From NCBI GenBank assembly GCA_023818655.1, contig JAMWCI010000001.1, forward strand, positions 1 to 45,677: DNA of 45,677 nt, in the 5' to 3' direction. The translations under genes and the position numbers were made by a program. The notes beneath the pieces are model-generated. The model worked only from the letters and a program-made list of their open reading frames with translations, was not told the origin of the DNA and did no database searches. Below are positions 15,915-38,045 of this stretch, piece after piece. Source of the DNA: Candidatus Omnitrophota bacterium (GTDB taxonomy: Bacteria; Omnitrophota; Gorgyraeia; Gygaellales; Profunditerraquicolaceae). The first letter of the stretch is position 1, and each line of letters opens with the position of its first letter.

Positions 15915-15917
15915 TCT

Positions 15918-16436: not shown

Positions 16437-16449
16437 ATCTGCCCTTTCT

Positions 16450-22736: not shown

Positions 22737-23708
22737 TCAATTTTTGCTTTGGTTTAAAAGGTGAACAACATCCCCGATATTCAAATAAATATGCTTGGTG
22801 ATTAAATTGCTGGGTGTTATGTCAAACGCCGGATAATATCCCTTGACTCCCTTTGGCGCAATAGAGATGCCGCAAAATTCCAATAATTCCCCCTCTGGAC
22901 GGATTTCAAGTTGAATATCCTCTCCTGTTTTAGCAAGAGAGACTGGAGAACAAAGCACATAAAAAGGAATCTTAAAATAATCTGCCATAATGGCAATCTG
23001 GTATGTTCCTATCTTATTGGCGATATCGCCGTTTTGGGCTAAGTTATCCGCGCCAACTATGACTTTGGAAATTTTTCCTTCCTTCATCACCTCTGCTACC
23101 ATATTATCGGCGATAACAGTGACATTACACCCTGCCTTTTTTAGTTCCCATGCAGTAAGACGGCTGCCCTGCAAATAAGGACGGGTCTCCGTAACAAAAA
23201 AACTTACGGATTTATTTTGCTGGCGGCATAATCTGGCAATTAAAGGCATAAGCCCGCTGACATTGCAATGGGTAAGAATTGTATCCTTATCGTCTATTAA
23301 TCCACTACATTCCTTTGCCTGCTCTATGCGTTTTGCCTTTAATCCTTCCAAAAAATTCAAGATGCCATTATCCAGCCGGACACCTTGCTTATGTAAACCA
23401 ATGGCAAGGTCAGTTAAAAACTTAAAAGATAGCGTTGGCCGAACGCTATTGAAGGCATCGGCAACATTAGACAGAATCTGAGCAATATTTTTTTTGTTCT
23501 GGTTTCGCCTGTATTCCAATAAAAAGGAATACATCACCAGCAATACCTGACCTATAGCGCGGGTCTTCATCTGTTTAATTGCCGATACCGCCTGTTTGTA
23601 ATTTCCTACTTTGATATATTTTAATTTATGCGGCAGCAATGTCTCATCTAAGATATAAATAAATTTACCTTTCAATTTCACCGGCCAAAACAAAGGAGAA
23701 TATTTCAT
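22737..23708 (-). CDS. eIF-2B alpha/beta/delta-family sugar-phosphate isomerase (MtnA-like; methylthioribose-1-P / 5-deoxyribose-1-P isomerase candidate)
   Basis: It has ILDETLLP near the N-terminus, ILTHCNVSGL (the catalytic Cys context of MtnA), and VIVGADNLAQNGDIANKIGTYQIA (the catalytic Asp context). Confidence 0.7.
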   Translation of the reverse strand: MKYSPLFWPVKLKGKFIYILDETLLPHKLKYIKVGNYKQAVSAIKQMKTRAIGQVLLVMYSFLLEYRRNQNKKNIAQILSNVADAFNSVRPTLSFKFLTDLAIGLHKQGVRLDNGILNFLEGLKAKRIEQAKECSGLIDDKDTILTHCNVSGLMPLIARLCRQQNKSVSFFVTETRPYLQGSRLTAWELKKAGCNVTVIADNMVAEVMKEGKISKVIVGADNLAQNGDIANKIGTYQIAIMADYFKIPFYVLCSPVSLAKTGEDIQLEIRPEGELLEFCGISIAPKGVKGYYPAFDITPSNLITKHIYLNIGDVVHLLNQSKN

Positions 23709-24457
23709 ATCCTTCCTTCTAACTTCTTTACCGTTGCCAGTCCGATATTAATCAGATTTGTCTCTGCCATATAATAAAGCGGATTCATAAAACCCATCTC
23801 TCCGGTTACGACATTGTCGCTGACTGCAAGGATTGAACCTGCTTTTACCTTATGCAGCTGCGCAATAGTCAGGAGCGCTGAAGAAACCATATCCACGGCA
23901 ATTGCGCCTTCTCTACGCCTGGCCTCCACAATCTGACGCGTCTCCCGCAATAACGCATCCGTAGTCCAGACAATCCCTCGATGGATATTTACGCCTAAGT
24001 CTTTGGCAACTTCATACAAGGTGTCGGAGATTGTTTTGTCAGCCACAGTTTGAAAATTCTCATCTACATAGTAAGGCGTTACCCCATCTCCTCGGATAAC
24101 CTTATCCACAATCACCAGATCGCCTATCTTGATATTATCATCCAAAGCCCCGCAGGTTCCGATGCGGATAATATTTTGTATGCCGGCATTGCACATCACC
24201 TCGGTGGTAATAGAGGTATCTGTGGAGAATCTACCGCCATTAATGGCGGTAATTCTTATCCCCTCATAGACGCCGGTATACATAGTGTATTCCATAAAAG
24301 AAAAATTGCGCACTGGATTCTCTATTTTTTTTACCAAGACTTCCAAACGGTCCTTTGGTCCGGGCACTATGGCATATTTGCCCACATCCTGAGGCCTCAA
24401 CTGCACCATATTGGTTAAATCTTTTCCGGTTAAATGAACATCCTTCTGCATCTGCAT
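23705..24457 (-). CDS. Nucleoside phosphorylase, NP-I (DeoD/Udp-like) family
   Basis: 250 aa with the pattern AIVPGPKDR .. YTGVYEGIRITAINGGRFSTDTSITTEVMCNAGIQNIIRIGTCGAL .. GDLVIVDK, typical of hexameric purine/uridine phosphorylases. Substrate cannot be read from the sequence. Confidence 0.7.
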   Translation of the reverse strand: MQMQKDVHLTGKDLTNMVQLRPQDVGKYAIVPGPKDRLEVLVKKIENPVRNFSFMEYTMYTGVYEGIRITAINGGRFSTDTSITTEVMCNAGIQNIIRIGTCGALDDNIKIGDLVIVDKVIRGDGVTPYYVDENFQTVADKTISDTLYEVAKDLGVNIHRGIVWTTDALLRETRQIVEARRREGAIAVDMVSSALLTIAQLHKVKAGSILAVSDNVVTGEMGFMNPLYYMAETNLINIGLATVKKLEGRI

Positions 24458-24474: not shown

Positions 24475-25128
24475 TTATCCGGTATAACCTATGGGAATAA
24501 TATATACGGGCTCTTCCTCTTTTCCTAGAGAAAGAATCTTTTTTACCTGACTGTTATCAAATGCTCCGATAGGGACAGACCCCAATCCCAGAGCTGTTGC
24601 TTCCAGATGGAGATTCTGGGCTACATGCCCTACTTCTATATCCACATATTGTCTCCCGCGCTCTCCATACTTAGATGTGACACGCCGATAGACCGCGCAA
24701 ACCACGACATTAACCGGCGCCTGAACTATTGCGCCCTGTCCAAAAGCAGAGTTAGCCAGAGGGATTCTCAAGTCAGAGGAACTTAATTGTTCTATGCGGT
24801 GTCCTTCCGGAAGATAATGATACAGGCCGTCTTTAGTCAATAAATAAATTTCTATCGGGTATAATGCGCCGGCAGAAGGCGCGCTACGTAGACTATGATT
24901 ACCTTTTTTAGCGGTTATGCCCTGAGCTGCCCAGAGAAGTTGACTGATTTGCTCAAAGGTTAGGTCTCTGGCTATAAACCTGCGTTGAGAACGTCTCTTT
25001 AGAATTGCCTCTTCCAGAGAAATCTTGCCTTTTGTTGCCGGATCAGGCAACTGAATTATCTCTCCAGCCATAACTCCTCCCGGATTCAATAAAAACACGC
25101 AAACCAATATCGCTGTGTATCCTCTCAT
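24475..25128 (-). CDS. SagB-type / nitroreductase-family flavoprotein with an N-terminal signal peptide or anchor
   Basis: It has RRSQRRF, LLWAAQGIT, LRSAPSAGALYPIEIYL, VGHVAQNLHLEATALGLG and a C-terminal PIGY. The N-terminal hydrophobic segment is TAILVCVFLLNPGGVMA. I call the ATG at 25128, because the track start at 25131 is a TTG. Confidence 0.7.
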   Translation of the reverse strand: MRGYTAILVCVFLLNPGGVMAGEIIQLPDPATKGKISLEEAILKRRSQRRFIARDLTFEQISQLLWAAQGITAKKGNHSLRSAPSAGALYPIEIYLLTKDGLYHYLPEGHRIEQLSSSDLRIPLANSAFGQGAIVQAPVNVVVCAVYRRVTSKYGERGRQYVDIEVGHVAQNLHLEATALGLGSVPIGAFDNSQVKKILSLGKEEEPVYIIPIGYTG

Positions 25129-25175
25129 CAACGTACTTCTGCCTATCCTGCGTTCATTCCAAACAGTATTTAGTT

Positions 25176-26105
25176 TTATGGCGACGATGACAAAGAAAAG
25201 GCTAACAGGCTTTCTAAATTCCTGCCTAAAATATTATTTTTATCTTCCTCTGAAATCGCTAATTCTCTGACTGCTCCGATGGAGTTGCTAATATCTTTTT
25301 TAGCTGGCCAGTCGCTACCCCAGAGTATATGCCTTGGCCCAAATAATTCAAGCGCCAAAAGAAAATTTGCCTTTGTCTTATCTCCGCCGGTATCCACATA
25401 GATATTCTTTAAATAATCCGAGGGGTTACCTTTTAAATCCTTTACGAAATTAATGCTGCGCAGCATAGAATAGGTGGCGTCAAATCTGTGCTGCAAAAAA
25501 GGTATTACCCCGGCAAAATGGGCAAAGATGAATTTAAGGTCATAATAATCGCGCAGGATATCGCTCATCAGGAGCTTGCCCGCGCTTAAGGTGATATCAA
25601 AAACATACCCAATCACCGGGGTTAAAAGCGGATCCTGCAACCGCTCTGCTCCTATAGGGTTTACAATCTGGGCATGTACAAAGATGGGAATCTTCTTCTG
25701 ACGGGCAATATTGTATACAGGAAGAAAACGCTGGTCATCCAGATATATTCCGTTGTAACTTGAGGCTAGGGAAATCGCCTTAAATCCCAACTCTTCAGTC
25801 GCTCTCTTTAACTCCTCGCACATATCTTTCGGATTATCTATAGGCAGCATTGCCGCACCGATGAATCGGTGAGGATAGCGCTTAATGATTTTGGCGACAT
25901 TATCGTTGTAGATACAAGCTGTCCGGGAAACGCTACCTATTTTCAGGTGCGCATCTGAAGTAGGATAGGAAAGCACAGCCTTGCTGATGCCTGCCTCATC
26001 CATAGCCTTAAGCTGGGCTTCGATATCGCCCCAGCCCTTGTGAAAGAAATGGGCGTTGGTTATAATCTCTTCGGGTAACCAGTGGGCATGGCTATCTATT
26101 ATCAT
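25176..26105 (-). CDS. Amidohydrolase-2 family metal-dependent hydrolase/decarboxylase (ACMSD-like)
   Basis: It begins MIIDSHAHWLPEE, the metal-binding HxH at the start. The C-terminal LWGSDWP is typical of the amidohydrolase-2 fold. Confidence 0.8.
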   Translation of the reverse strand: MIIDSHAHWLPEEIITNAHFFHKGWGDIEAQLKAMDEAGISKAVLSYPTSDAHLKIGSVSRTACIYNDNVAKIIKRYPHRFIGAAMLPIDNPKDMCEELKRATEELGFKAISLASSYNGIYLDDQRFLPVYNIARQKKIPIFVHAQIVNPIGAERLQDPLLTPVIGYVFDITLSAGKLLMSDILRDYYDLKFIFAHFAGVIPFLQHRFDATYSMLRSINFVKDLKGNPSDYLKNIYVDTGGDKTKANFLLALELFGPRHILWGSDWPAKKDISNSIGAVRELAISEEDKNNILGRNLESLLAFSLSSSP

Positions 26106-26500
26106 CTGCGCTCCGTACTCTTTAGAATGCGTTCAATCATCTCCATCTCATAGAGAAGTTTTATCTCCTTGAGGGCATCTTTGCCCAGCTCCTTGAGGAT
26201 GGCCTTTTCCACCGCCTTAAGTTTCAAATGAAGAAAATTATACTCTGGATTAATTTCATTATTATTCAAAAACTTCTGCTCCTTTGCCTCCTTTTCCTTG
26301 TTGCATATATAATTATGGAAATCACTAATAAACTTAACCAGTTTCCTGGAGCTATCCATACGGATAATCTCCCTAAGCAAGAATCTGTCGATTTCTAACT
26401 GGGTAAATTTGCGCTCAATTTTATCCAGCTCTTCTTTTGTGGTTTTGTAAAGCCAAACCAGATACCGCTTTTTCAGGTTCTTCAGGTCAAGTTTCTCCAT
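26102..26500 (-). CDS. Hypothetical helical/coiled-coil protein
   Basis: 132-aa K/E-rich ORF with no recognisable motif. It is ATGA-coupled to the amidohydrolase gene, which supports real coding. Confidence 0.45.
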   Translation of the reverse strand: MEKLDLKNLKKRYLVWLYKTTKEELDKIERKFTQLEIDRFLLREIIRMDSSRKLVKFISDFHNYICNKEKEAKEQKFLNNNEINPEYNFLHLKLKAVEKAILKELGKDALKEIKLLYEMEMIERILKSTERR

Positions 26501-26510: not shown

Positions 26511-27119
26511 CTATTTCTTTATCAACTCCACATCGTCAAAATATAAGGTGCCTTTTGCCACAGGCAGCGGTTCGAACTGGTAGCTTTTAATGGGGAAATC
26601 CAGAATCCCGTTTTTGTCTGCTGATTCCGGCTGCCAGTCAGTGCGGGCAAAGAAATGGTCAAAAATACAGATAACCTGCTTCCACCCCTTAACGTCATCG
26701 CTGGTGATAAAACGCCACATCTCTCCGCCATTATCTTTCACGTCAAAAGCTATATCTTCCTTTGAGCCTGCGCCGTACATCCAGAATGAAATCCCCTTAA
26801 AATCGCTCCACTTGATATCATTAGCTTTAACTAACCAAGCGGCATTTTTTGCATCTAGTTCCTCTCCTCTTGCTATATACATATACCCTCCGGAAACAGC
26901 GTCAAAGGCCGCCCGCAAAGACTGCTTTCCTGAATGCACTTGTTCTGTTGCGGCGCTTACTTGCAAGGATGAACCATTACCAGCGCCAAAGTCTACTGTG
27001 CCGTCTGGCCCGCCGGAGATTATCCCCTCAAAGTTATCAATCACTAACCCAGCCTCTTCAGAAAACGCTACCCCTGCCACAAATAAAACCGCTATCACCA
27101 TAAAAACTATCCTTTTCAT
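26511..27119 (-). CDS. Exported beta-sandwich protein (CBM/CIA30-like carbohydrate-binding-type domain)
   Basis: It has a signal peptide (VFMVIAVLFVAGVAFS). The pattern VIDNFEG ... GTLYFDDVELIKK resembles CBM11/CIA30-type modules. This assignment is tentative. Confidence 0.45.
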   Translation of the reverse strand: MKRIVFMVIAVLFVAGVAFSEEAGLVIDNFEGIISGGPDGTVDFGAGNGSSLQVSAATEQVHSGKQSLRAAFDAVSGGYMYIARGEELDAKNAAWLVKANDIKWSDFKGISFWMYGAGSKEDIAFDVKDNGGEMWRFITSDDVKGWKQVICIFDHFFARTDWQPESADKNGILDFPIKSYQFEPLPVAKGTLYFDDVELIKK

Positions 27120-27143: not shown

Positions 27144-27920
27144 CTATTTATCAGGGTGCTGTTGTTGAAATGGTATAACCGGCTTTGTCCAAGGCGTCTG
27201 CTGGTTTATAATGGAAATCTCCAAGGGGCAAACATTTGCCGGCACAGTCAGGGCAAATTTTACCGCATTCTCTATCGCCTCGGTAGTCATTAAGCGCGAT
27301 GTATCTGTGGTAACTTCTTTGAGCTTGCCGGTCAGGTCCGTATCCGTAACCCCGGGAAGAAGCGAGGTAATCTTAATCCCGTAGTCGCGAATCTCCCAAA
27401 AAAGCCCTTTTAAAAATGCGCGCAAGCCTACCTTTAAAGAGCTATACACCAGAAAATTTCTGGGCAAGGGGTCGCAAAGGGTTGAGCCGGAAACAATACT
27501 GATAATCGCCCCGGATTTATTTTTTATCATATCGTTAATCACCAGCCGGATGAGCCGGACATAGCCCATATAGTTAGTATGCGCCAGTTTCTCAATATCA
27601 TCAATGGGTTGCTCTGGAAAAGGATATTGACTGGAGACCCCGGCGTTGTTAATCAGAATATCTATCCTGCCAAACCGCTCCTTGGTTTTATTAACCAGGT
27701 TTTGCAGGTCTTCAAGTTTTGCCACATCGCAAACCACTGGCAAGACTTCTACCTTATATTTTTTAGCTATCTCTTCAGCTGCTTCTTTAAGCGGGCCTTC
27801 AGCCCTGGCTGCAATAACCACATTTATCCCAAGGCTGGCCACAGTAGAAGCCAAGGCCTTGCCTATGCCCCGGCTTGCTCCGGTAACAATGGCGGTTTTT
27901 CCTTTAAGTTCGCTAATCAT
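27144..27920 (-). CDS. Short-chain dehydrogenase/reductase (candidate polyketide ketoreductase)
   Basis: It has TGASRGIGKA for cofactor binding, NNAG, and the catalytic YSSLK (Y-x-x-x-K). There is a strong SD (GAGGAGG). Confidence 0.85.
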   Translation of the reverse strand: MISELKGKTAIVTGASRGIGKALASTVASLGINVVIAARAEGPLKEAAEEIAKKYKVEVLPVVCDVAKLEDLQNLVNKTKERFGRIDILINNAGVSSQYPFPEQPIDDIEKLAHTNYMGYVRLIRLVINDMIKNKSGAIISIVSGSTLCDPLPRNFLVYSSLKVGLRAFLKGLFWEIRDYGIKITSLLPGVTDTDLTGKLKEVTTDTSRLMTTEAIENAVKFALTVPANVCPLEISIINQQTPWTKPVIPFQQQHPDK

Positions 27921-27942: not shown

Positions 27943-29070
27943 CTACGTCCGATTAACCAACAGCAATCTCTTCTCCAATAACAATAAAATGGTCAGACAC
28001 CCTCCGCAAAAGACAAAATTACTAACCGGGCTTTTCTGCAAAAGCATCCCTCCTAAACCGGCTCCTATGCCTCCGGAGATAAAACGGATGCTGCTGTTTA
28101 AGCTGGCGGCTTCGTAAAGAAAATTTTTCGGCAGATCAGTAAGAATGGTAGAAAGCCCAACGTGATTCATTGTCCAGCCCCAGCCCCAGATAATCATCAG
28201 TAGCGCCAATAAAAAAATCGGCATCTTAATCACCAGAGAAAACGCGCTTAAAATCATCAGGATAATCCCCAGTTTGATTGTTTTAAGCCTGCCCAATGAA
28301 TCTGCCAGCCTCCCTCCTAGCACTTCTCCAAAAATTCCGCTTACGCTGGTTAAGGTAATCAACATACTGATTAAGAATTGCCCCAGCCCCAACTGAAAAG
28401 AAAAATATACCGCCAACCACTGCTGCAGGCCATGATAGATTAGACTGATAAAAAATATATAGGTAAATACAGACAAAAATCTCCTGTCTTGAAAAGCATT
28501 AAGGTAATTCGTCCTAAAAATTCCTTCCTCACTAGTAAGACAGGGAAGATAAAAATACATCGCCAAACATAGACAAATACCTGCTACTGCCGGAATAATA
28601 AAAATCACCCGCCAGGGCAATACCCCGCTTAAGAAAAGCCCGCAAAGGGAGGCGATAAAAGTAGCGCCAAAGAAGAGCCCTATGTGTTTGCCTCTTTTAT
28701 CAGCCTCTATCTGCTGACCAATAAGGATAATCCCCACGGGAATAACCGATGCGCCGAATATCCCCGTCAAAAACCTTGCCCAGAATAGCTGATAGATATT
28801 TGCGGATAATCCCGCTAAAAGATTAGCAAGAGAAAATAAACCCAGACAGGTCATTTCTATCTTCTTGGCGTCAAAGAGCCGGACCAGCGGTCCATAGATA
28901 AGCGCGGCAAGACCGTAAGGAATCATATACAGCCAGATAATTCTTCCGGCAAAAAATTGAGAAACGAGAAAATCCTTGGCAATAGAAGGCACCAACGCGG
29001 CAGAAGCTGCCACATTAAAAGAAAGAATCGCTGCCTCTAAACACAGGATAAGAAAAACGTTTTTTTTCAT
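27943..29070 (-). CDS. Major facilitator superfamily transporter
   Basis: About 12 predicted TM helices with typical MFS loop composition. I call the ATG at 29070 (MKKNVFLILCLE...). The track start at 29112 is a TTG lying inside the upstream gene. Confidence 0.75.
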   Translation of the reverse strand: MKKNVFLILCLEAAILSFNVAASAALVPSIAKDFLVSQFFAGRIIWLYMIPYGLAALIYGPLVRLFDAKKIEMTCLGLFSLANLLAGLSANIYQLFWARFLTGIFGASVIPVGIILIGQQIEADKRGKHIGLFFGATFIASLCGLFLSGVLPWRVIFIIPAVAGICLCLAMYFYLPCLTSEEGIFRTNYLNAFQDRRFLSVFTYIFFISLIYHGLQQWLAVYFSFQLGLGQFLISMLITLTSVSGIFGEVLGGRLADSLGRLKTIKLGIILMILSAFSLVIKMPIFLLALLMIIWGWGWTMNHVGLSTILTDLPKNFLYEAASLNSSIRFISGGIGAGLGGMLLQKSPVSNFVFCGGCLTILLLLEKRLLLVNRT

Positions 29071-29086
29071 AGTAAGGACTGTTTGC

Positions 29087-29530
29087 CTATTGCCTGGCGG
29101 CTTCCCTTTCAATAATCTGCTTAAAAATCTTCAGATTTGTCTGAGAACCTTCGTTAATGAAGCCCTCCACCTGCTGGTCATTGAATTTTGCTTTCTCATC
29201 CATCTCAAAATGCTGAATCCAGCTCATCTCTATGCCTTCTGGTTTGGGAGTATAAAGCCAGATGATCTTCATATACTTAAAAGGAAATTTTGGCTCTTGC
29301 CTTTCGGCATAAGCAAAGTATTTGTCTTTAAACAAAAGTCGCCAGGATACCCAGGATTTACCTTCTTCATCAGTCAGGCGGAAGGTGAGCTTATTGTCTT
29401 TTCTCTCCAAGACCTCCGCCTTTTGGTATTCCCCGCCAAAAAGTTCTGTCCAGCGAGAGATATCGTTTGAGATATCAAAAACCAAATCGTATGGTGCGTT
29501 GATGATAATGGAATTGCAGGTATGCCCCAT
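29087..29530 (-). CDS. SRPBCC/START-fold polyketide aromatase-cyclase, mono-domain TcmN-like
   Basis: 147 aa. The pattern HTCNSIIINAPYDLVFDISNDISRWTELF..EYQKAEVLER....LTFRLT .. PFKYMKIIWLY .. GIEMSWIQHFEMD matches, as I remember it, the TcmN/WhiE-type ARO/CYC pattern. There is a strong SD (AAGGAGGGAG). Confidence 0.7.
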   Translation of the reverse strand: MGHTCNSIIINAPYDLVFDISNDISRWTELFGGEYQKAEVLERKDNKLTFRLTDEEGKSWVSWRLLFKDKYFAYAERQEPKFPFKYMKIIWLYTPKPEGIEMSWIQHFEMDEKAKFNDQQVEGFINEGSQTNLKIFKQIIEREAARQ

Positions 29531-29567: not shown

Positions 29568-30359
29568 TTAAATTACCGCTACAACCCTTGCCCAGGCAGC
29601 GCCGGTACATTTAATCCTTATCGGAAAACAGATTACCTTAAAGCCAAAATCCGGCAGTTTCTCCAGATTAGCTAAACGCTCAATGTGGATAAACTCCCTT
29701 TTTCTGCCGTAAAAATGCGCCGGATACAATGGTTTTCTCTGTTCTAAAAACTCTCTGAGCATAAATTTATATGGCCGGTCAATCCCCATAGTATCCACGC
29801 CAAAGATTTTTACCCCCCTATCCAGAAGATAATCTATCGCTGAAATATCTACTCCTGGATAATCGGAAAAATATCTTGGAGTGCCATAAAATTTATCCGC
29901 GCCGGTCTGTAAGAGAACTACGTCTTTTTCTTTAATGGTGTAATTTATCTTTTTAAGCCCGCTTTCAATATCCGCCGCGCTAATTACCTCTGCCGGCCTC
30001 TTATGCCTGAAATCCAACCTGACCCCGTCAGAGTAACACCACTCCAAAGGAATCTCATCAGCGCTCTTAGAGGGTCGGCCCTCAGACTTTGAACCGTAGT
30101 GGAAAGAGTAATCCAGGTGCGTGCCGATATGCACCGGAGAATGCACTACTTCCAGAGAGAGAAATTCTCCTTCCGGCAGGTCCTCTTTTTTTAAGATGCG
30201 CAAACCCAGCAGATACTTTATCCTGCCAAGGAGGGTCTTAACCATAATAACGCGGTTGAATTTCTCTACGCCTGCCTTATGCGAAATCCGCTCAATATCC
30301 ACCTTATGTATCTCAAAGGCACTCTCGTCAATGGGCAGGCTTAAATCAATTATCTTCAT
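29568..30359 (-). CDS. Cyclase-family protein (kynurenine-formamidase-like Zn hydrolase/cyclase fold)
   Basis: It has the H-x-G-T-H-x-D-x-x-x-H motif (HSPVHIGTHLDYSFHYG). The size is right at 263 aa. It is ATGA-coupled to the ACP gene. Confidence 0.7.
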   Translation of the reverse strand: MKIIDLSLPIDESAFEIHKVDIERISHKAGVEKFNRVIMVKTLLGRIKYLLGLRILKKEDLPEGEFLSLEVVHSPVHIGTHLDYSFHYGSKSEGRPSKSADEIPLEWCYSDGVRLDFRHKRPAEVISAADIESGLKKINYTIKEKDVVLLQTGADKFYGTPRYFSDYPGVDISAIDYLLDRGVKIFGVDTMGIDRPYKFMLREFLEQRKPLYPAHFYGRKREFIHIERLANLEKLPDFGFKVICFPIRIKCTGAAWARVVAVI

Positions 30360-30592
30360 TTTGCAATCTTAGACTGAATTACCTTATCAATATCATTAAT
30401 GGTAGAAAACTTGGTAACCTCCTTTGCGCCCAAGGATATGCCGAAGACCTTTCCCAAAGCAATCACTGCCTCTACCATCTCAGTAGAATCCACACCTATT
30501 GAATCCTGCAAGGAGACATCATCCTTCAACTCTTCCGGCTTGACCTTAAGCAGATTAATCAATATTTCTTTTATCTTCGCTTTCGTATCCAT
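30356..30592 (-). CDS. Acyl carrier protein
   Basis: 78-aa acidic protein with the phosphopantetheine attachment motif GVDSTEMVE (Ser36). It has an SD (AGGAGAGGG). Confidence 0.85.
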   Translation of the reverse strand: MDTKAKIKEILINLLKVKPEELKDDVSLQDSIGVDSTEMVEAVIALGKVFGISLGAKEVTKFSTINDIDKVIQSKIAK

Positions 30593-30607: not shown

Positions 30608-32068
30608 TTAAATCTGAATCTCACCTTTGGTTGCTGCGGCTTCCCATTTTCCAATGCCTGACATAACATCCTGAAAACAAAGTTTTGCCAAAGGGTCAAA
30701 GTTGCTCTCCATAATCCTGTTTATGCGTCCGGGCTTGGAATAAAATTCGCGCATACACCAAGCGCCCAAACGGCCTAACTCTTCAATCGTTAAATGGTCT
30801 GTGGGTATGACTGGATGCAAAAAATCCCAGGTGCTAAAATCTACTTTCTTGGGGTCAATCCAGTTTTTCTTCAGGGCTATCCTCCACATGGGGGAATTCG
30901 GGGCAGGGGTTACATAACCAATCCATAACACATCCGGGTCAACCTCATCGGCAAACTCAAACCTCTGCTTGATAATTGCCTCGGTATCGTAATCAAACCC
31001 AATCATAATATCCGCCACAATCGCAATATCATTCCTGCGCAAAATCTCAATGGTTTTTTTAATCTGTTCGATGGTGGTGCCTTTGGCAATCCGTTTCAGC
31101 TCCTCCGGAGTTGTAACCTCAATACCAAACACGCCCATAAATAAACCCGTTTCTTTCATTAGCGGCAGGATATGTTCACAATTTACCCAGTCCACTGCCC
31201 GACCCAAAGAAACCCACTTAATGGGGATATTCTTTTCTTTCTTTAATTCGCAAAATCTTTTTACCCGCTGCGGGTCAACATTAAAATTGTCGTCTTGAAT
31301 AACCACTACCTTTACGCCATACTTTTTATGAAGTAGTTCCATCTCTTCAATTACCCTCTCCGGAGACTTTGCTCGCCATTTCAAGAAGTCCGAAGGAGAA
31401 CGCGGGTCAAACTGGTCCCATTCATAGCAGAATGTGCAGGCAGATGGACAACCCCGGGAAGTAATCATATCCACGAAGGGCTTCCAGTGGGTATGCCCCA
31501 CGTATTTATCCATCGGGAACAGGTCATACGCCGGAAGGGGCAGCTTATCCAAATCACTCATCAACGGCTTATGCGGACCCATAACAATCTCTCCGTCAAT
31601 GCGCGAGGTGACTCCGCCGATATTTCTTAAGTCTTTCTTTTTATCAATCGCCTCAATTAAATCCGCAAAAGATTCTTCTTCTCCCATCACTACAAAATCT
31701 ACTGCCGGATTTTCCTCCAAGGTCTGTGTCGGCATAGCAGAGTACCATAAACCTCCCAGGATTATTTTTACCTTGGGAAGCGCCTGTTTAATCCTTACGC
31801 CTGCCTCCTTAAAATGGCGCAAGACGCCGTAGCCGGCATAACCGTGTATCTGTTCACCCATGACCACAATATCAGGGTTTTTGCTCTTGACCTGTTCGAT
31901 TAATTGCTCCATGGGAATCTCTAAGGCCCTTCCGTCAATAACCCCTACGTCAGCATATCCTCGCTGGCGTATATACGCTGCCCAATGGGCATAAAGCTGG
32001 TTCGGAGACTTATGGATTCCATGCGTTGCCCAGGCGCCGACTTTCGGCATAACAAATAAGATTTTCAT
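30608..32068 (-). CDS. B12-binding-domain radical SAM enzyme (class B)
   Basis: The N-terminal Rossmann-like B12-binding domain pattern runs MKILFVMP ... DIVVMGEQIH ... IILGG. It is followed by ITSRGCPSACTFCY (CxxxCxxC; Cys212/216/219 in ORF-track numbering). I call the ATG at 32068, which lies 8 nt after a GGAGG. The track start at 32083 is an alternative. Confidence 0.85.
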   Translation of the reverse strand: MKILFVMPKVGAWATHGIHKSPNQLYAHWAAYIRQRGYADVGVIDGRALEIPMEQLIEQVKSKNPDIVVMGEQIHGYAGYGVLRHFKEAGVRIKQALPKVKIILGGLWYSAMPTQTLEENPAVDFVVMGEEESFADLIEAIDKKKDLRNIGGVTSRIDGEIVMGPHKPLMSDLDKLPLPAYDLFPMDKYVGHTHWKPFVDMITSRGCPSACTFCYEWDQFDPRSPSDFLKWRAKSPERVIEEMELLHKKYGVKVVVIQDDNFNVDPQRVKRFCELKKEKNIPIKWVSLGRAVDWVNCEHILPLMKETGLFMGVFGIEVTTPEELKRIAKGTTIEQIKKTIEILRRNDIAIVADIMIGFDYDTEAIIKQRFEFADEVDPDVLWIGYVTPAPNSPMWRIALKKNWIDPKKVDFSTWDFLHPVIPTDHLTIEELGRLGAWCMREFYSKPGRINRIMESNFDPLAKLCFQDVMSGIGKWEAAATKGEIQI

Positions 32069-32088
32069 TCTCAAGCCCTCCATTTCTT

Positions 32089-32108
32089 TAGTTGATTATA
32101 GTTGATAT
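32089..32108. repeat. Tandem 10-bp direct repeat in the CLF/radical-SAM intergenic spacer
   Basis: TAGTTGATTA is followed by TAGTTGATAT, with the first 8 of 10 positions identical. The period is one helical turn. It overlaps a -10-like TATAAT on the minus strand. Confidence 0.6.
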
Positions 32109-32122
32109 TAAAAACCTTGCAA
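32095..32122 (-). promoter_or_regulatory. Candidate internal promoter ahead of the radical SAM-ACP-cyclase genes
   Basis: On the minus strand: TTGCAA (32122-32117), 16 nt, TATAAT (32100-32095). A GGAGG then precedes the ATG at 32068. Confidence 0.3.
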
Positions 32123-32133: not shown

Positions 32134-33363
32134 TTATGGTTTTTCTACGACCAAGACCGCATTAATCCCTCCCCTGCCGCGGGAGATGGCCAAGGCTTTC
32201 TTAATCTTGTGCTCTTGCGCTTGTTTTCTGACGTAATTTAATGAATTCTGCGCAGGTTCATCAAGATTTATGGTAGGTGGAATTAAATTATGCTCCATAG
32301 CCAAAAGGGTAATTATCAAATCTATGGCCCCTGAAGCGCCTAAGAGATTTCCGAACATAGACTTTGGACAGCTGACAGGTATCTCTTTAAGCCTATCTCC
32401 AAAAACAATCCTTAAAGATTCTATCTCTGAGTTATCCCAGATATCCACAGCCAGACCATCAAGGCTGATAAAATCTATCTCCTCGGCTTCTGTCTTGGCA
32501 TCAGCAAGCGCCGTCTTAATTGCCCGGGCTAACTCTTGGCCGTCTGCGGCCGGATTAATCCTGTCTGCGCCGTCACAAGTTGTGCCGTAACCGGAAACTA
32601 AACCCAAGATATTTCCTCCCCGCGCAAAAGCGCGTTCAACACTCTCCATCACAACAATCCCTGCGCCTTCTGCGATAACAAAACCATTGCGTCTCTTATC
32701 AAATGGCCGGTAGGCCTCCTGCGGATGGGCGTTATCTGTGGAGAGCCCTCCGTAAGTGTTGCAGCATAACAGCGCATAGGGAGTAACCGGCGCCTCCATA
32801 CCGCCGGCTAAAATCAGATTTAATTTATCTTTGGCTAAAATCTTGCGCGCATAACCAATAGCCATTGTTGAACTTGCCCGGTCAGCGACTACGGTTTTGG
32901 AAAATCCCTTTATCCCGTAATAAATAGAAACCTGCCCTTGGGGGGCAGCAGGAAACCAGGCAGAAGCCATATAAGGAGAAACTCCTTCCCTGCCCTCAAT
33001 ATACATATCGCGCAATTCTGTCTCGGCATACAGCCAGCCGCCAATGGCATTGCCTAAAAATATCCCTACAAGATTAGGATTTTCTTTTTTAATATCTATG
33101 CCAGCATCCTGCAAGGCAAACTCTGAGGCAATCAAGGCCATATGCGAGAAGGCGTCAATCTTTTTTAAGAGCCGCGGCGAGATAGTGGAGTATTTTTCCA
33201 ACTCGTCAATCTGACCGGCAATATGCGAAGGGTATTTTGAGGCATCAAAACGGGTAATTTTCTTGACAAAGGAACGACCGCTTTTGATGTTTGCCCAGAA
33301 TTGACGTTTGCCAATCCCTGATGGACTAACTACGCCAATACCGCTAATGGCAATCTTATCCAT
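32134..33363 (-). CDS. Ketosynthase beta / chain-length-factor-like subunit, catalytically inactive
   Basis: It has the thiolase-fold KS pattern throughout. Column-by-column alignment to the adjacent KS-alpha puts Arg162 (codon CGG at 32880-32878) at the catalytic Cys position. Asp302 and Asn339 fall at the two catalytic His positions. Its start overlaps the KS-alpha stop by 8 nt. Confidence 0.8.
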   Translation of the reverse strand: MDKIAISGIGVVSPSGIGKRQFWANIKSGRSFVKKITRFDASKYPSHIAGQIDELEKYSTISPRLLKKIDAFSHMALIASEFALQDAGIDIKKENPNLVGIFLGNAIGGWLYAETELRDMYIEGREGVSPYMASAWFPAAPQGQVSIYYGIKGFSKTVVADRASSTMAIGYARKILAKDKLNLILAGGMEAPVTPYALLCCNTYGGLSTDNAHPQEAYRPFDKRRNGFVIAEGAGIVVMESVERAFARGGNILGLVSGYGTTCDGADRINPAADGQELARAIKTALADAKTEAEEIDFISLDGLAVDIWDNSEIESLRIVFGDRLKEIPVSCPKSMFGNLLGASGAIDLIITLLAMEHNLIPPTINLDEPAQNSLNYVRKQAQEHKIKKALAISRGRGGINAVLVVEKP

Positions 33364-34618
33364 TAAACCTCCGTAAAATTAAAGAAGAGTGAATCCCGGA
33401 GAAGCCGCTTGAAGTCTTCATCAGACAATTTATCCGCTTCTGGCGGGCTACATTAGGTATATAATCCAAATCGCACTGAGGGTCTTTCTCCTCCTGATTT
33501 ATTGTAGGAGGAAGAAAATTCTTTTCAAACATCATCGCATTGACGGTTAACTCCACGGCATTAGCTGCTGCCAGAGGATGACCAATCATAGATTTTAAGG
33601 AACTAATCGGCACCTTATAGGCATAATCGCCAAAAACTGTTTTGTAGGCAGCGGTCTCAAAGATATCGTTCATCCGGGTAGAAGAGCCATGCGCGCCGAT
33701 GTAATCAATCTCCTGTGGTTTAATCCCGGCGTCTTTTAAAGCCAAAACAATACAATTAGCCATAGCCGTGCCATCCGCCGGTAAATCCGTCATATGAAAT
33801 GCGTTGCAGCTCGTACCAAAACCGACCACCTCGCAATATATATGCGCATTTCTTTTTAAGGCGTGGTTTAATTCTTCTAAAATCAAAATTCCAGCCCCCT
33901 CCCCCAAGACAAAACCGTCGCGCCTATTATCAAATGGCCGCGAGGCTTTCTCAGGTGTATCATTGCGAGTAGATAAGACGCTGATCACGTCGAATGCGCC
34001 AAAGGTAATTGGCGTAATCGGAGCTTCTGCCGCCCCGCAAATCATAATCTCCTGTTCTCCGTCTTGAATGGTTTCTAAGGCAAAACCCACAGAGTCGGTT
34101 CCGGCGGTGCAACCGGTAGATAAAGTATTGCAGATTCCTTTTAGACCATATTTAGACGAGATTTCAATAGAGGGGGTATTAAACATCGCCGCATCATAAA
34201 GGTCAGGCCTGACCTTGGCAGGGTCAATAGGTTCTTTTCCGTCATTGGTCACTAAGGCAAACTCCTCTTCCATATATTTTGTGCCGCAGATGGCATTGGC
34301 TAAACAAACCCCTATCCGCCTAGGGTCTTCTTTGCTAAAATCCAAGCCGCTATCTTTAATCGCCATTTCTCCGGCAACTAATCCGAACTGCACATAGCGG
34401 TCCATCCGCATTACTTCCTGGTGAGTGAGACCCCATTGAAAAGGGTCAAAATCGCGCACCTCTGCGGCAATCTTGGTCTGAAAGATAGAGACATCAAATC
34501 CCTCTACTCGTTTTACTGCCGATACTCCGCCAACCATTGCCTTCCAGCAATTTTCTTTGCCAATACCATTAGGGGAAATCACCCCAATACCCGTAATCAC
34601 CACCCTGCGTTTATTCAT
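33356..34618 (-). CDS. Type II polyketide ketosynthase alpha subunit
   Basis: The catalytic triad is intact: Cys170 in LSTGCTAGTDSVG (codon TGC at 34111-34109), His310 in GAHGSSTRMND, and His347 in KSMIGHPLAA. The STGCT.G.D.VG and HGS.T..ND contexts are of the KS-alpha type rather than the FabF type. Confidence 0.85.
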   Translation of the reverse strand: MNKRRVVITGIGVISPNGIGKENCWKAMVGGVSAVKRVEGFDVSIFQTKIAAEVRDFDPFQWGLTHQEVMRMDRYVQFGLVAGEMAIKDSGLDFSKEDPRRIGVCLANAICGTKYMEEEFALVTNDGKEPIDPAKVRPDLYDAAMFNTPSIEISSKYGLKGICNTLSTGCTAGTDSVGFALETIQDGEQEIMICGAAEAPITPITFGAFDVISVLSTRNDTPEKASRPFDNRRDGFVLGEGAGILILEELNHALKRNAHIYCEVVGFGTSCNAFHMTDLPADGTAMANCIVLALKDAGIKPQEIDYIGAHGSSTRMNDIFETAAYKTVFGDYAYKVPISSLKSMIGHPLAAANAVELTVNAMMFEKNFLPPTINQEEKDPQCDLDYIPNVARQKRINCLMKTSSGFSGIHSSLILRRFNG

Positions 34619-36216
34619 TCTTCTATCCGCGTTAGTTTAAAGACTACCTTTCCGCCATCTGGACACGTTACTGTATCAATAGAATTTTGATTAGGCATAA
34701 AGAAAAATTTTGCGCCGAAATTCAAGGCAAAGAGAGCGGGAAAGGCGCAGTGGAAAGCTGCTCCGCAAAACCCCGGGATGCACTTTAAACCCTCGGTCCC
34801 CCATTTATCCCCGACTTTGTAGCCGAAGTGGCAAGTTCCGTCAGACCTCACTACCTCAATAAGCATTTTCTTCGGCTTAGGCCCTTTGTAATTTGGGTCT
34901 TTAGGGCTAAACTGCGCTTTGCCTTTATTGTCCAGAACCTCCACCTTAAACTCTAATTTTCCTCCGTCAGGACAGGTAACTTTTAAGGTCTGCTGGTTTT
35001 CCATAAAGGGAAACTTCGCCCCGAAACTTAAGGCGTAGGCTGCCGGAAACACTGCATGCGCAAGACCCAGACAGAAATATTTGGGCGGATGAGTAAAATC
35101 TTCTAAGATCAGCTCATCTCCGACTTTATATCCATGATAACAATGCCCTCCGACATTAACTACGCTGAGTTTAAGGCGCGGAAAAGGAGAATCAATCACC
35201 TTATTCTCAACAATCTCCGCCAGTCCATTAATTTCCCGAAAAAACTCTTCCCTGCTGAAAAACTTCCTATTCTTTTCAACCTCATGCACCATCTCCACCA
35301 TTTTTTTATTGAGCGGCGCATCCAATCCGTATTTCTCAGCTAACCGCACAAACTCTCCGTTAAGATAATCTATCTCCGAAGGTCTGCCTCTTTTTATGCT
35401 TTGCAATACCGAACCGTAGAGCGGCTCTTTACTCAATGTAGTCATGATGCCGGAGTATATCCCTGCTGACTGCACAGCAGGCAAAGAAACCAGTTTAGTC
35501 AGACGCTCAAGGGGAAAATCCGGCAAAGAAACCAGTTTAATTCCTCCTTTGTTAACAATCTCCCAACCCTCTTTCCATATCTGCATAGCCACGCAGGATA
35601 CATTAATATCGCTAAAGGCCTTCTGGATGCTAACACCTAAGATGGCAGGGATACAGTTATTGGCATTTATAAAGAGCTTAAGGTATTTCATCCCCTGGAT
35701 ATCGTCGGCAAGCCTAACATTAAAAGCCACGCTTAACGTTGCGAATAACTGCTTGAGCGTATCGTCGTTCTTCCCAAATGCGCTTCCGATAATCCACGGC
35801 CCTTCAAAGTTATGCGCAATCCTGCCTGGTTCAAGGCGGGTGGCGCCGAACATTACAATACTGGAGACGATATTTTCCTTTGGCGCATATTTAGCCACCA
35901 GTTCTTCGCTGGCTACACCGTTCTGGATAGTCAGGATTATCGCATCTTTAATATATGCCTGATTACTCTTTAACGCCTCTTCTATATCTTGGGTTTTGGT
36001 AGCTAGAATAATAAGGTCTGGTTTATAAGAGAGCTTTTCCGAGATGGGTATCTTTATATTATGCTGGCCCTTTGCTCCGGAAATATGCAGGCCGTTTTCT
36101 TCCACCGCCTTTACGCTGTCAGCATGAGCAACTAAAGATACATCTTGACCTTTTAGCTTTAAATAACCGGCTACCAAACCTCCGATTGCTCCTGCGCCAA
36201 TTACCGTAATCTTCAT
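34615..36216 (-). CDS. Ketopantoate-reductase (ApbA/PanE)-like NAD(P) oxidoreductase fused to two tandem small Cys/His-rich domains (TIGR04076-like)
   Basis: Residues 1 to about 310 begin MKITVIGAGAIGG (Rossmann) and show the KPR pattern (LATKTQD .. QNG .. EIDYLNGEFVRLAEKYGLDAP). Residues about 347-427 and 451-531 are two copies of one roughly 80-aa module (C.HGYKVGD ... FC..A.H..FPA..AL.FGAKF.FM.NQ....VTCPDGGK..FK). Confidence 0.75.
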   Translation of the reverse strand: MKITVIGAGAIGGLVAGYLKLKGQDVSLVAHADSVKAVEENGLHISGAKGQHNIKIPISEKLSYKPDLIILATKTQDIEEALKSNQAYIKDAIILTIQNGVASEELVAKYAPKENIVSSIVMFGATRLEPGRIAHNFEGPWIIGSAFGKNDDTLKQLFATLSVAFNVRLADDIQGMKYLKLFINANNCIPAILGVSIQKAFSDINVSCVAMQIWKEGWEIVNKGGIKLVSLPDFPLERLTKLVSLPAVQSAGIYSGIMTTLSKEPLYGSVLQSIKRGRPSEIDYLNGEFVRLAEKYGLDAPLNKKMVEMVHEVEKNRKFFSREEFFREINGLAEIVENKVIDSPFPRLKLSVVNVGGHCYHGYKVGDELILEDFTHPPKYFCLGLAHAVFPAAYALSFGAKFPFMENQQTLKVTCPDGGKLEFKVEVLDNKGKAQFSPKDPNYKGPKPKKMLIEVVRSDGTCHFGYKVGDKWGTEGLKCIPGFCGAAFHCAFPALFALNFGAKFFFMPNQNSIDTVTCPDGGKVVFKLTRIEE

Positions 36217-36491
36217 CTGTGTATTTCCTGTTTTGTCTTGGGAAAACCGTATTTTTTGTAGTCAAAGCCGGTCTGCTCCAATAGACGCACCATCATGCTG
36301 TAAAAAGGCGAAGGCACATCCGCAAAAAACGCGCCTATTACATCCTCCTCTTCAATTTTCGGCGAGCCCCTTTTTAAAGCCAGTTCTTCTGCCTTCTTAA
36401 TCACTATCTCCTCTGTTATGCGACGGTGAAAGAGGGGGATTTTGGAAATAAAGATTTTGAATTTATCCTGCACCGTTCTTTCCCATTCCAT
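36213..36491 (-). CDS. Small PCP-reductase-like (BchB/ChlB C-terminal-like) domain protein
   Basis: 92 aa. The pattern WERTVQDKFKIFISKIPLFHRRITEEIVIKKAEELALKRG resembles the W..eA...l.kiP.FvR......e..A...G pattern of that domain. It is the first gene after the promoter and is ATGA-coupled to the next gene. This assignment is tentative. Confidence 0.5.
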   Translation of the reverse strand: MEWERTVQDKFKIFISKIPLFHRRITEEIVIKKAEELALKRGSPKIEEEDVIGAFFADVPSPFYSMMVRLLEQTGFDYKKYGFPKTKQEIHR

Positions 36492-36588: not shown

Positions 36589-37107
36589 TTAGATTACGTT
36601 GATAAAGCGGGTTAAAAAATTAATCTCTGAATCAACCATCCGCAGGTTATGTTCTAGTATATAAATAAGACTCCTTGGGCTCTTGGTCTTTTTTAACTCT
36701 TCTATATTCTCTCTTAAATCCCGGGATAATTTTCTTAAAACCATAGTCCTTGCGCGTAACCTGCGTCTGGCTATCTGTGGCTTAATATAATTAAGAAAAT
36801 AGAGGCTTAAATCCAGGCTAAACTGCGGACGTTTAAAGTCCAGAAAACTTTTACTTAAAAGCTCCTCAAATCTCTCCTGCCCTCTCGCGGTCAGATAATA
36901 TACAAAACGCTCTGGCCGCTTCCCCTTTTTTCTGATTCGTTTGGCAATAAGACCCCTGCGTTCAAGAATCCTTAGGGGATAGTAAATGGATTTTAAATCC
37001 ACTCCCGCAAAGATAGAGAGTATCTCTTTTATCGTTTTCTTGATTTCATAGCCGTGCTTCTGGCTTTCCTTTAACAAACCCAAGAATAATAATTCGTATT
37101 CAATCAT
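36589..37107 (-). CDS. PadR-family transcriptional regulator
   Basis: It has a winged-helix pattern ([23 protein letters not shown] .. [14 protein letters not shown]) and a helical C-terminal extension. It is ATGA-coupled to accA. Confidence 0.8.
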
Positions 37108-38045
37108 GCAAACACCCCAATAGCACGGAATTTTTTGTAGCGTGCCTTAAGCAGGGTCTCAGTCTCCAGTTTTTTTAATTCGCTGAGATTTTTCAGCAGG
37201 GAATCTTTTAAATTCTTAGCCATCATCTGCGGGTCGCGGTGTGCCCCGCCTAATGGCTCCGGTATTATCTCATCGATAATACCCATCCCCAACAGGTCCT
37301 GTGCGGTTAGCTTTAATACCTGGGCTGCCTCAGGAGCCCTTGAGCCATCCTTCCACAATATCGCTGCGCATCCTTCGGGTGAGATGACGGAATAATAGGC
37401 ATTTTCCAGTACGCAGACCCTGTCGGCAACACCTATCCCCAACGCACCTCCTGAACCGCCTTCGCCTATAACTGTAGCCACCATCGGCACTGCTATATTC
37501 ATCATCTCGCGCAGATTCTCGGCTATGGCCTGCGACTGACCACGCTCTTCCGCCCCTATTCCGGGATATGCGCCCGGCGTATCAATAAATAACAATACCG
37601 GCAGGCCTGACTGCTCAGCCAGACGCATAATCCTTAGGGCCTTACGGTAACCCTCGGGATGCGTGCAGCCAAAATTGCGTTTAAGGTTTTCCTTTGTGTC
37701 TCTTCCTTTCTGGTGTCCTATTACCGCTACCTTCTGACCTTCAAATTTTGCCAGGCCAGCTATTAATGCCTTGTCGTCGAAAAAAGCCCTGTCTCCGTGC
37801 AACTCCAAGAAATCAGTCATAAGCATATTGATGTAATCAAGGGTATAAGGACGCTGGGGATGGCGGGCAATCTGTACCTTCTGCCATGCCGTAAGGTTGG
37901 CATAGGTTTCTTTCTTTAGGGCTTCCAGTTTATCTTCCAGACGTTTAACCTCAGCAGAGATATTGATCTTCTTCTCGGAGAAATCCTTAAGCTCCTTGAT
38001 TTTCTTCTCCAGCTCTGCTATAGGTTTTTCAAATTCAAGGCTCAT
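37104..38045 (-). CDS. accA: Acetyl-CoA carboxylase carboxyltransferase alpha subunit
   Basis: 313 aa with [28 protein letters not shown] and [12 protein letters not shown]. Confidence 0.9.

Follow-up and report, generated by a model that had tools for sequence, protein, structure and literature searches.

Type II polyketide synthases (PKSs) with an 'ancestral', non-actinomycete layout have been described for dendrubin, AQ-256 and pyxidicycline (PMC7693217), and the dendrubins are anthraquinones of an anaerobe whose cluster includes neither an oxygenase nor a methyltransferase (PMC7693217). The nearest precedent for a radical S-adenosylmethionine (SAM) enzyme in a type II PKS cluster is CoeI, a HemN-like class C radical SAM methylase from the coelulatin cluster, which methylates an anthraquinone (PMC9714029). 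Here, we analysed a stretch of 45,677 nt (the window) from a Candidatus Omnitrophota bacterium (assembly GCA_023818655.1, contig JAMWCI010000001.1, positions 1 to 45,677), in which an earlier note, made from the sequence alone, had reported a class B radical SAM enzyme encoded within a minimal PKS. It is very probable that this protein, referred to below as rSAM (30608..32083, minus strand), serves, as a dedicated enzyme, an aromatic type II polyketide pathway that anaerobes have conserved and passed on vertically, and is not there as a chance neighbour and, as part of the same proposition, that the pathway is of the 'ancestral' type, namely ketosynthase (KS), chain length factor (CLF), acyl carrier protein (ACP), cyclase and TcmN. 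Full-text literature searches aimed at this cluster found no description of it, nor of any type II PKS cluster in which a class B radical SAM enzyme is a conserved component.

The rSAM open reading frame (ORF) is 491 aa long and contains the cluster motif ITSRGCPSACTFCY, with the cysteines at C212, C216 and C219 (ORF numbering). Because its homologues are 486 aa and start with MKILF, and because the second ATG (32068) has a GGAGG 8 nt ahead of it, the true start is probably M6 at 32068, which would give a protein of 486 aa (30608..32068). The ORF, its motif and the range of 486-491 aa in the earlier note were thus all correct, and the assignment to class B also stands. A Rossmann-type N-terminal domain precedes the radical SAM domain, and the two are matched by the Pfam families B12-binding (PF02310, residues 35-138, E 3.7e-12, 46.6 bits against a cut-off of 32.1) and Radical_SAM (PF04055, residues 206-377, E 3.2e-23, 83 bits against 29.5). 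In the AlphaFold2 (AF2) model (pLDDT 78, pTM 0.84), strands and helices alternate at residues 8-162, and the fold recovered by Foldseek, detailed below, agrees with the hidden Markov model (HMM) matches. The class B architecture is therefore confirmed. The CxxxCxxC cysteines are invariant across 23 close and 100 distant relatives, and the N-terminal domain retains GG and acidic motifs that are near-invariant in the surrounding cloud of BchE-like proteins. Cobalamin use by rSAM is predicted and likely. The Pfam B12-binding match begins at profile position 21, presumably after the DxHxxG loop, and this would fit base-off/His-off binding as in other class B enzymes. No cobalamin riboswitch was detected in the window, the only RNA elements seen being two tRNAs. 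An auxiliary Fe-S cluster was also considered and was rejected; since the additional cysteines C278, C302, C443 and C469 are not kept in the sister clades P0140-P0143, rSAM probably has no second cluster.

The genes around rSAM, all on the minus strand and tightly spaced, include a minimal type II PKS. The KS-alpha (33356..34618), identified by Pfam, has an intact Cys-His-His triad, with the active site GCTAG read in the sequence, and its best PDB sequence matches are the actinorhodin KS-alpha (1TQY_A, 384 bits) and AntD (6SMO_B, 379 bits), with FabF just below. In a pairwise alignment with this KS, the CLF-like partner (KS-beta, 32134..33363) has Arg, Asp and Asp in place of the catalytic Cys, His and His. 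The CLF lies 50 nt upstream of rSAM and the discrete ACP (30356..30592; Pfam PP-binding, with a DS motif) 15 nt downstream, as expected from the placement of rSAM between CLF and ACP in the earlier note. Two further genes encode dedicated aromatase/cyclases. One is a PF04199 'Cyclase' protein (29568..30359, Pfam E 2e-29) that is kept in all cluster variants and that we take, from knowledge of the Pfam family, to be an OxyN/DpsY-type aromatic-polyketide cyclase. The other is a monodomain SRPBCC aromatase/cyclase of the TcmN/WhiE type (29087..29530), which in a PDB sequence search matched WhiE ARO/CYC (3TL1/3TVR) and TcmN (2RER) at E ~1e-25. With a KS-alpha that has its triad, a dead KS-beta/CLF, a discrete ACP and two aromatase/cyclases, the cluster is, as judged from its gene content, truly an aromatic type II PKS, and its layout is the 'ancestral' one of non-actinomycetes.

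A FAS-like (fatty acid synthase-like) or ladderane-type lipid cluster was tried as an alternative, an idea that arose from a match of rSAM to TIGR04072 ('rSAM_ladder_B12', 77 bits). 'Ladderane' biosynthetic gene clusters have been reported in Omnitrophota (PMC9902471) and a ladderane KS/CLF-like pair exists (bioRxiv 10.64898/2026.05.19.726425). This alternative is ruled out by the TcmN/WhiE aromatase, the PF04199 cyclase and a KS that is nearest to the act and Ant KS-alpha proteins.

Like the dendrubin-type 'ancestral' clusters, the cluster here combines a minimal PKS and TcmN-/OxyN-type cyclases with few tailoring genes in an anaerobic or Gram-negative host, and a terminal decarboxylation was proposed for the former (PMC7693217) while the latter encodes a decarboxylase-type enzyme. 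Unlike them, it also has genes for the class B rSAM, for a small helical protein and for an ApbA-TIGR04076 reductase, along with a block of genes for the disposal of 5'-deoxyadenosine. Further differences are a single TcmN domain and the Arg in the CLF. Canonical CLFs carry Gln at the position of the KS active-site Cys, and here Arg is found instead (residue 162), in all 76 Omnitrophota loci and in 39 of 48 loci from the sister clades described below. Chain priming may differ from that of canonical type II PKSs, and a co-conserved AMP-forming acyl-CoA/ACP ligase (18758..20272) could load the starter unit.

Homologues of rSAM numbered >1,000 at E <= 1e-10, the 120 best listed being 73-89% identical, and those named among the matches listed come mostly from Candidatus Omnitrophota metagenome-assembled genomes (MAGs) and in single cases from Thermodesulfobacteriota or 'Pseudomonadota' MAGs. 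When one genome for each GTDB species was scanned with a pattern, 258 stretches were seen to encode an rSAM relative, and the best 80 of these were mapped. These yielded 76 informative species-representative loci, nearly all from Candidatus Omnitrophota. PKS genes were present in every one of the 76 and the order CLF-rSAM-ACP in 70. The Omnitrophota loci retain the whole order, beginning with the small protein and ending with the aldehyde dehydrogenase, and the synteny of the cluster is kept on >100 independent contigs. As the best 80 of the 258 rSAM-bearing stretches are nearly all labelled either Omnitrophota or generically, the window, which also encodes LeuRS, ComEC, RlmN and AccA, is Omnitrophota chromosome. 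In one MAG (CAZOGI01, contigs 1 and 4), the whole locus of ~21 kb appears twice (L013 and L014) with the same hit coordinates and identities, and this is either a real duplication or redundancy of assembly or binning. The core is shared by the versions from Thermodesulfobacteriota and 'Pseudomonadota', which have MarR-MMPL upstream and DUF1329-DUF1302 downstream. These flanking genes for an MMPL/RND-type transporter and for DUF1329 and DUF1302 proteins are at 3208-5574 and 19031-21461 in L001 and at 8972-11333 in L165; these families are, we assume, outer-membrane-associated, and would hint at a hydrophobic, envelope-directed product.

When the rSAM relatives were clustered at 50%, the family formed a tight island, with the next clusters at 49, 45, 39 and 38% identity and, beyond these four sister clusters, a broad cloud of BchE-like proteins at 26-35%. 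A metagenome scan seeded with the four sister clusters gave 80 loci, 58 of them informative, in which rSAM is 43-63% identical, and in 51 of the 58 it lies within the PKS cluster but in other gene orders. Order B runs PadR, ligase, phosphorylase, isomerase, aldolase, aldehyde dehydrogenase (Aldedh), rSAM, small protein, ApbA, KS, CLF, ACP, cyclase and TcmN. In order C, a short-chain dehydrogenase/reductase (SDR) and a 132-aa protein precede rSAM, and Amidohydro_2, phosphorylase and onward follow it. Order D consists of an FMN reductase, rSAM, an aldehyde:ferredoxin oxidoreductase (AOR), ApbA, KS and onward. The AOR, of the tungsten type, is directly after rSAM in L147 (9465-11303) and L161 (1741-3609) and absent in L154 and L156, and the FMN reductase or flavodoxin-like gene is upstream of rSAM in L147 (5733-6482) and L154 (1529-2251). 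The former could be a strictly anaerobic stand-in for the aldehyde dehydrogenase, and the latter could supply the reductant for the radical SAM cluster.

At least four gene orders are thus conserved, and CLF-rSAM-ACP is one of them. Nothing comes between KS, CLF and ACP in the rest, where the neighbours of rSAM are the salvage genes, the small protein gene or the gene for the 132-aa protein. Though it had been proposed from the position of the gene that rSAM acts on an ACP-tethered intermediate, the insertion between CLF and ACP is a lineage-specific order and no mechanistic sign that the enzyme works on a chain bound to the ACP; because the sister clades keep the cluster in other gene orders, the position is weak evidence for such a substrate. 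The rearrangements are informative in another respect. Because the co-occurrence of rSAM and PKS survives them repeatedly, it is strong evidence of functional coupling. The earlier note had put its proposal at risk should the family never be linked to KS/ACP genes elsewhere; linkage in 76 of 76 and 51 of 58 loci leaves the proposal standing and rules out a fortuitous adjacency.

No other protein of the cluster is as conserved as rSAM. Over the same Omnitrophota loci, the proteins have median identities to their counterparts in the window of 86% for rSAM, 83% for the SDR, 80% for both KS and phosphorylase, 79% for the CLF and 75% for the housekeeping AccA, though loci were ranked by rSAM identity and the apparent conservation of rSAM is somewhat inflated by this. 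As its median identity is the highest in the cluster and above that of AccA, a core rather than a decorative role is suggested.

Public annotations of the rSAM homologues are generic ('radical SAM protein', 'YgiQ', 'anaerobic Mg-protoporphyrin cyclase'), and rSAM was compared with curated profiles and structures. The best curated NCBIfam profile is BchE (TIGR02026, 218 bits, E 2e-64, residues 8-438), followed by HpnJ (TIGR03471, 157 bits, E 9e-46), but neither family threshold is reached (481 and 577.6 bits, respectively). Like BchE, rSAM has a two-domain layout and is of similar length, with the last ~80 positions of the 497-position BchE profile unmatched. Unlike BchE, it has PKS genes and no (bacterio)chlorophyll genes as neighbours, and the substrate would have to be a polyketide and not a porphyrin. 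For HpnJ, the likeness is in the profile score, and the difference is that no hpn genes are found in the window and the phosphorylase at the rSAM locus is only weakly HpnG-like. The methylase families score lower. The highest is the profile for ApyD, which acts on peptides made on the ribosome and modified after translation (RiPPs), at 122 bits and below its cut-off, while PhpK, HpnR, KedN5, the RiPP C-methyltransferases, TsrM and MgmA give 21-110 bits against unmet cut-offs of 282-700. The emphasis on methylation implied in the earlier note is thus not reflected in the closest curated families, which are the non-methylating BchE and HpnJ. When the 100 nearest 50%-cluster representatives of rSAM were scored against NCBIfam, the best single E-value was given by the HpnJ profile. 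As both rSAM and these representatives miss the BchE and HpnJ cut-offs, the family appears to sit in an uncharacterised part of the BchE/HpnJ-like cloud. Among the distant relatives, P0146, P0148, P0150, P0183, P0194 and P0202 are giant proteins of 1,900-2,600 aa, and several hold 2-5 separate B12-radical-SAM-like stretches and would be multi-rSAM fusions.

Foldseek searches with the rSAM model returned the class B enzymes TsrM (6WTE), OxsB (5UL4), TokK (7KDY), CysS (9N1D) and MgmA (9CCB) at E 1e-14 to 1e-17, the matches overall having TMq 0.59-0.68 and identities of 14-19%. These structures share with rSAM a Rossmann-like N-terminal domain and a radical SAM barrel, as does AprD4, but rSAM is shorter than TokK, CysS and OxsB (486 vs 628-729 aa) and is without their long C-terminal domain. 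The top match is AprD4 (6FD2), both in sequence (E 7e-16) and in structure (E 4e-19, TMq 0.67). AprD4 presumably has the same fold without using cobalamin, and for this reason the fold alone is no proof that rSAM uses B12. If the cobalamin-like domain were vestigial, as in AprD4, rSAM could be a cobalamin-independent dehydratase or reductase of a hydroxylated polyketide. This is improbable, as the AprD4 profile and sequence matches span only the radical SAM half of the protein (residues 167-441), and the N-terminal domain passes the Pfam B12-binding threshold by itself and keeps the GG and acidic motifs.

The reading we favour, though tentatively and with appreciably less than even confidence, is that rSAM is a BchE-like, O2-independent oxidising tailoring enzyme that carries out an oxidation or an oxidative ring chemistry. 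It is favoured because of the profile affinity, the core-like conservation of rSAM and the lack of an oxygenase in the cluster; neither an oxygenase nor an ordinary methyltransferase was found in any cluster variant inspected. BchE is an anaerobic enzyme that takes its oxygen from water and not from O2, which fits a chemical gap in an anaerobic aromatic-polyketide pathway. The anoxic setting supposed in the earlier note is borne out by the occurrence of the cluster in Omnitrophota and Thermodesulfobacteriota MAGs, by the absence of any O2-dependent enzyme from the cluster and by the tungsten AOR in one variant. In the proposed scheme, the [4Fe-4S] cluster of rSAM would cleave SAM to the 5'-deoxyadenosyl radical, and this would remove a hydrogen from the cyclised polyketide at a carbon of benzylic or anthrone type. 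Helped by a second cofactor, from the cobalamin domain, the substrate radical would then be oxidised, and either oxygen from water or a carbon within the molecule would trap it; the outcome would be a carbonyl, a quinone or an extra ring, for which aerobes would use an O2-dependent anthrone oxygenase. The product would be hydrophobic and would be exported by the major facilitator superfamily (MFS) transporter encoded in the cluster (27943..29112; identified by Pfam and present in about half of the loci) or, in the non-Omnitrophota version, by MMPL with DUF1302/DUF1329.

A number of points weigh against this assignment, in addition to the bias in the ranking of loci noted above. The BchE score is under half of the family cut-off, and the cut-offs for BchE and HpnJ are missed by all 100 nearest representatives as well. 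Transfer of function at ~30% identity is unreliable among radical SAM enzymes. Cobalamin binding by rSAM is a prediction only, and the top structural match is the presumably cobalamin-free AprD4. Most characterised class B enzymes are methyltransferases. Finally, seven sister-clade loci (L119, L121, L122, L125, L126, L127 and L162) have no PKS or salvage genes within 3-8 kb of rSAM. The rSAM proteins of these loci are 51-63% identical to that in the window, and their neighbours include TetR/TrkH genes and cytochrome c biogenesis genes with the anaerobic ribonucleotide reductase NrdD and its activase (NrdDG). Either the PKS is elsewhere in these genomes or rSAM has another role there.

The possibility that rSAM is a cobalamin-dependent radical SAM C-methyltransferase ranks nearly as likely as oxidation. 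In this scheme, one SAM would methylate cob(I)alamin, the radical from a second SAM would take a hydrogen from an unactivated sp3 carbon of the polyketide or starter, and methylcobalamin would give up a methyl radical, possibly iteratively as in TokK and CysS. The class B architecture, the fold matches to TsrM, TokK, CysS and MgmA, the predominance of methylases among the characterised enzymes of the class and the absence of a conventional methyltransferase from the cluster are all compatible with it, as is the location of the gene between CLF and ACP in the Omnitrophota order. A precedent also exists, as CoeI, encoded in a type II PKS cluster, C-methylates an anthraquinone (PMC9714029). CoeI resembles rSAM in being a radical SAM tailoring enzyme within a type II PKS cluster but differs in being of class C, with no cobalamin domain, in coming from an actinomycete-type cluster of a soil metagenome, and in being decorative in a single cluster where rSAM belongs to the conserved core throughout the phylum. 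Against methylation, one would not expect a decorative step of this kind to be what a cluster conserves best, the cluster contains no gene dedicated to S-adenosylhomocysteine, the methylase profiles reach at most 122 bits against 218 for BchE and 157 for HpnJ, and rSAM is without the long C-terminal domain of TokK, CysS and OxsB. Oxidation of CH2 to C=O (+13.979 Da) and methylation (+14.016 Da) both give a nominal +14 Da.

The same two leading profiles also bear on a non-oxidative radical C-C bond formation or rearrangement, since BchE performs a cyclisation and HpnJ a ring contraction. The rSAM could close a ring, contract one in the manner of HpnJ or OxsB, or couple aryl groups of a poly-beta-keto or aromatic intermediate. 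OxsB is a structural match of rSAM, the cluster has only two cyclases, and extreme conservation would fit a scaffold-defining step. Nevertheless, ring closures in type II PKS pathways are normally aldol chemistry that needs no radical, and every profile match is under its cut-off; we consider such a reaction unlikely.

A further feature of the cluster is a set of genes that can be related to radical SAM chemistry. It consists of an NP-I family nucleoside phosphorylase (23705..24457) that is kept in all cluster variants and would presumably act on 5'-deoxyadenosine, an MtnA-like (eIF-2B family) sugar-1-phosphate isomerase (22737..23708), a class II aldolase with a C-terminal SCP2-like domain (21723..22733) and an NAD(P)-dependent aldehyde dehydrogenase (20278..21726). 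A phosphorylase, an MtnA-type isomerase and an aldolase of class II, found together here, constitute the 5-deoxyribose or dihydroxyacetone phosphate (DHAP) shunt, which converts 5'-deoxyadenosine to DHAP and acetaldehyde (PMC6079011, PMC10986504). On contigs of sufficient length, every gene order retains the block, and in orders B and C it is contiguous with rSAM. In having the three genes in one operon, it is like DrdK/I/A and MtnP-MtnA-Ald2. It is unlike them in lying inside a biosynthetic cluster beside the presumed radical SAM source, in being joined by an aldehyde dehydrogenase and the AMP-ligase (with the AOR beside rSAM in order D) and in the fusion of the aldolase to an SCP2-like domain. 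The simplest reading of the block would be dedicated by-product removal, with recycling to acetate or acetyl-CoA. Each turnover of rSAM would free 5'-deoxyadenosine, an inhibitor of radical SAM enzymes; the phosphorylase, isomerase, aldolase and aldehyde dehydrogenase (or AOR) would clear it as DHAP and acetate, and the AMP-forming ligase may turn the acetate back into acetyl-CoA.

The SCP2-like (sterol carrier protein 2 family) tail, at residues ~215-336 of the aldolase, would be unexpected for a purely acetaldehyde-forming enzyme, and its Pfam match barely clears the threshold (21.8 bits, with the cut-off at 21.3; PDB SCP2 matches at E ~0.02). Orthologues in L001, L164 and L165 are of like length (334-338 aa). 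Because of this tail, another reading of the block is kept alive, in which rSAM would transfer an adenosyl group as MqnE/MqnB do for futalosine or HpnH/HpnG for hopanoids. The 5'-deoxyadenosyl radical would add to the polyketide, the phosphorylase would strip the adenine, and the isomerase and SCP2-fused aldolase would trim the ribose to a two-carbon aldehyde side chain, to be oxidised by Aldedh or AOR and activated by the AMP-ligase. The phosphorylase, isomerase, aldolase, aldehyde dehydrogenase and ligase are co-conserved with rSAM in every variant and are often contiguous, and the phosphorylase weakly matches HpnG. According to work cited in PMC6079011, the same enzyme series makes fluoroacetaldehyde from 5'-fluoro-5'-deoxyadenosine. 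We judge this reading the least probable of those considered, as plain 5'-deoxyadenosine salvage explains the same genes more simply and the SCP2 match is marginal. In addition, the known adenosylating radical SAM enzymes are, we presume, not of class B, and the B12 domain would have no role.

A further-reaching and unlikely extension of the favoured BchE-like oxidation is that rSAM is the missing O2-independent 'anthrone oxygenase', using SAM, cobalamin and water to form a polyketide quinone that is a phylum-wide, quasi-primary metabolite. The polyketide quinone of the Omnitrophota and some Desulfobacterota would then be a membrane redox carrier or a protective pigment and not an antibiotic. 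If true, the quinone would explain why the cluster is chromosomal and located by accA, is conserved above housekeeping genes and has its own route for 5'-deoxyadenosine disposal.

The first gene of the operon (36213..36491) encodes a 92-aa protein, predicted to be a four-helix protein (AF2 pLDDT 87), that the earlier note had described as PCP-reductase-like and as a possible accessory of rSAM. It has 916 homologues, those listed being all 85-102 aa, and several are annotated DUF2621. The gene is conserved and specific to the cluster, and in order B it is directly after rSAM. An HMM search did not detect it in orders C and D or in the loci without linkage. The matches to DUF2621 (PF11084, E 3e-5, 24.3 bits against 27.7) and PCP_red (PF08369, E 0.0036, 17.7 bits against 32.5) are both below the Pfam thresholds, though some orthologues carry a precomputed DUF2621 match. 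The best PDB fold match, weak at E 0.26, is the 62-residue Nostoc protein Asr4154 (2L09), which we assume to be a PCP_red-domain protein. Hence, on conservation and gene order the protein is a plausible, non-universal partner of rSAM, while the likeness to PCP_red is below threshold.

Between the small gene and the KS-alpha gene lies a gene for an NAD(P)H reductase of the ApbA/PanE type with two TIGR04076 domains fused to it (34615..36216; Pfam and NCBIfam profiles), these domains being in tandem and Cys-containing. The ApbA/PanE and TIGR04076 parts are two genes in L001 (Thermodesulfobacteriota) and in L164. A PadR regulator gene (36589..37107) is upstream of the operon and after accA (37104..38045), which encodes the housekeeping acetyl-CoA carboxylase carboxyltransferase alpha. 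The accA gene overlaps the start of padR by 4 nt, and it is syntenic with the cluster in >20 Omnitrophota loci and some sister-clade loci; this adjacency may couple malonyl-CoA supply to the pathway. Promoter-like pairs were seen on the minus strand in the gap between PadR and the small gene (TTGACA-17-TAAGAT, 36538-36566) and in that between CLF and rSAM (TTGCAA-16-TATAAT, 32095-32122). Counts of promoter and terminator sites in the region showed no excess over shuffled controls.

Beyond the MFS transporter gene are genes for the SDR ketoreductase (27144..27920), a CBM_11-like protein (26511..27119), the conserved 132-aa helical protein (26102..26500), which has no family match and adjoins rSAM in order C, and an Amidohydro_2 protein (25176..26105) of the ACMSD/LigW/gamma-resorcylate decarboxylase type, which is probably an aromatic-acid decarboxylase. 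A SagB-family FMN dehydrogenase/nitroreductase gene (24475..25131; TIGR03605, E 5e-40, above the cut-off) is located between Amidohydro_2 and the phosphorylase and has no tblastn counterpart in 163 related loci. Elsewhere this slot holds variable genes, mostly without a family match, with one TPR protein and one alpha/beta hydrolase, and none of the variable inserts of other loci is a methyltransferase or an oxygenase. The AMP-forming ligase gene, beyond the salvage block here, heads the cluster in order B. Away from the cluster, ORFs of 642, 163, 144, 442, 181 and 168 aa on the minus strand (43100-45028, 45146-45637 and 14148-16956) have no Pfam family above threshold, and tRNA-Ala and tRNA-Leu are divergent at 13642-13884.

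On the current understanding, most diversification of aromatic polyketides after the PKS steps depends on O2-requiring oxygenases, and hardly anything is known of the way in which strict anaerobes bring about oxidation or alkylation of these scaffolds. The rSAM is a single, strongly conserved enzyme family that, in hundreds of anaerobes not yet cultured, is closely tied to a type II PKS of the ancestral type. It is also unusual for a biosynthetic cluster to carry its own disposal route for a radical SAM by-product. The cluster marks a conserved, probably quasi-primary aromatic polyketide pathway in the Omnitrophota, a phylum with almost no experimentally known metabolites.

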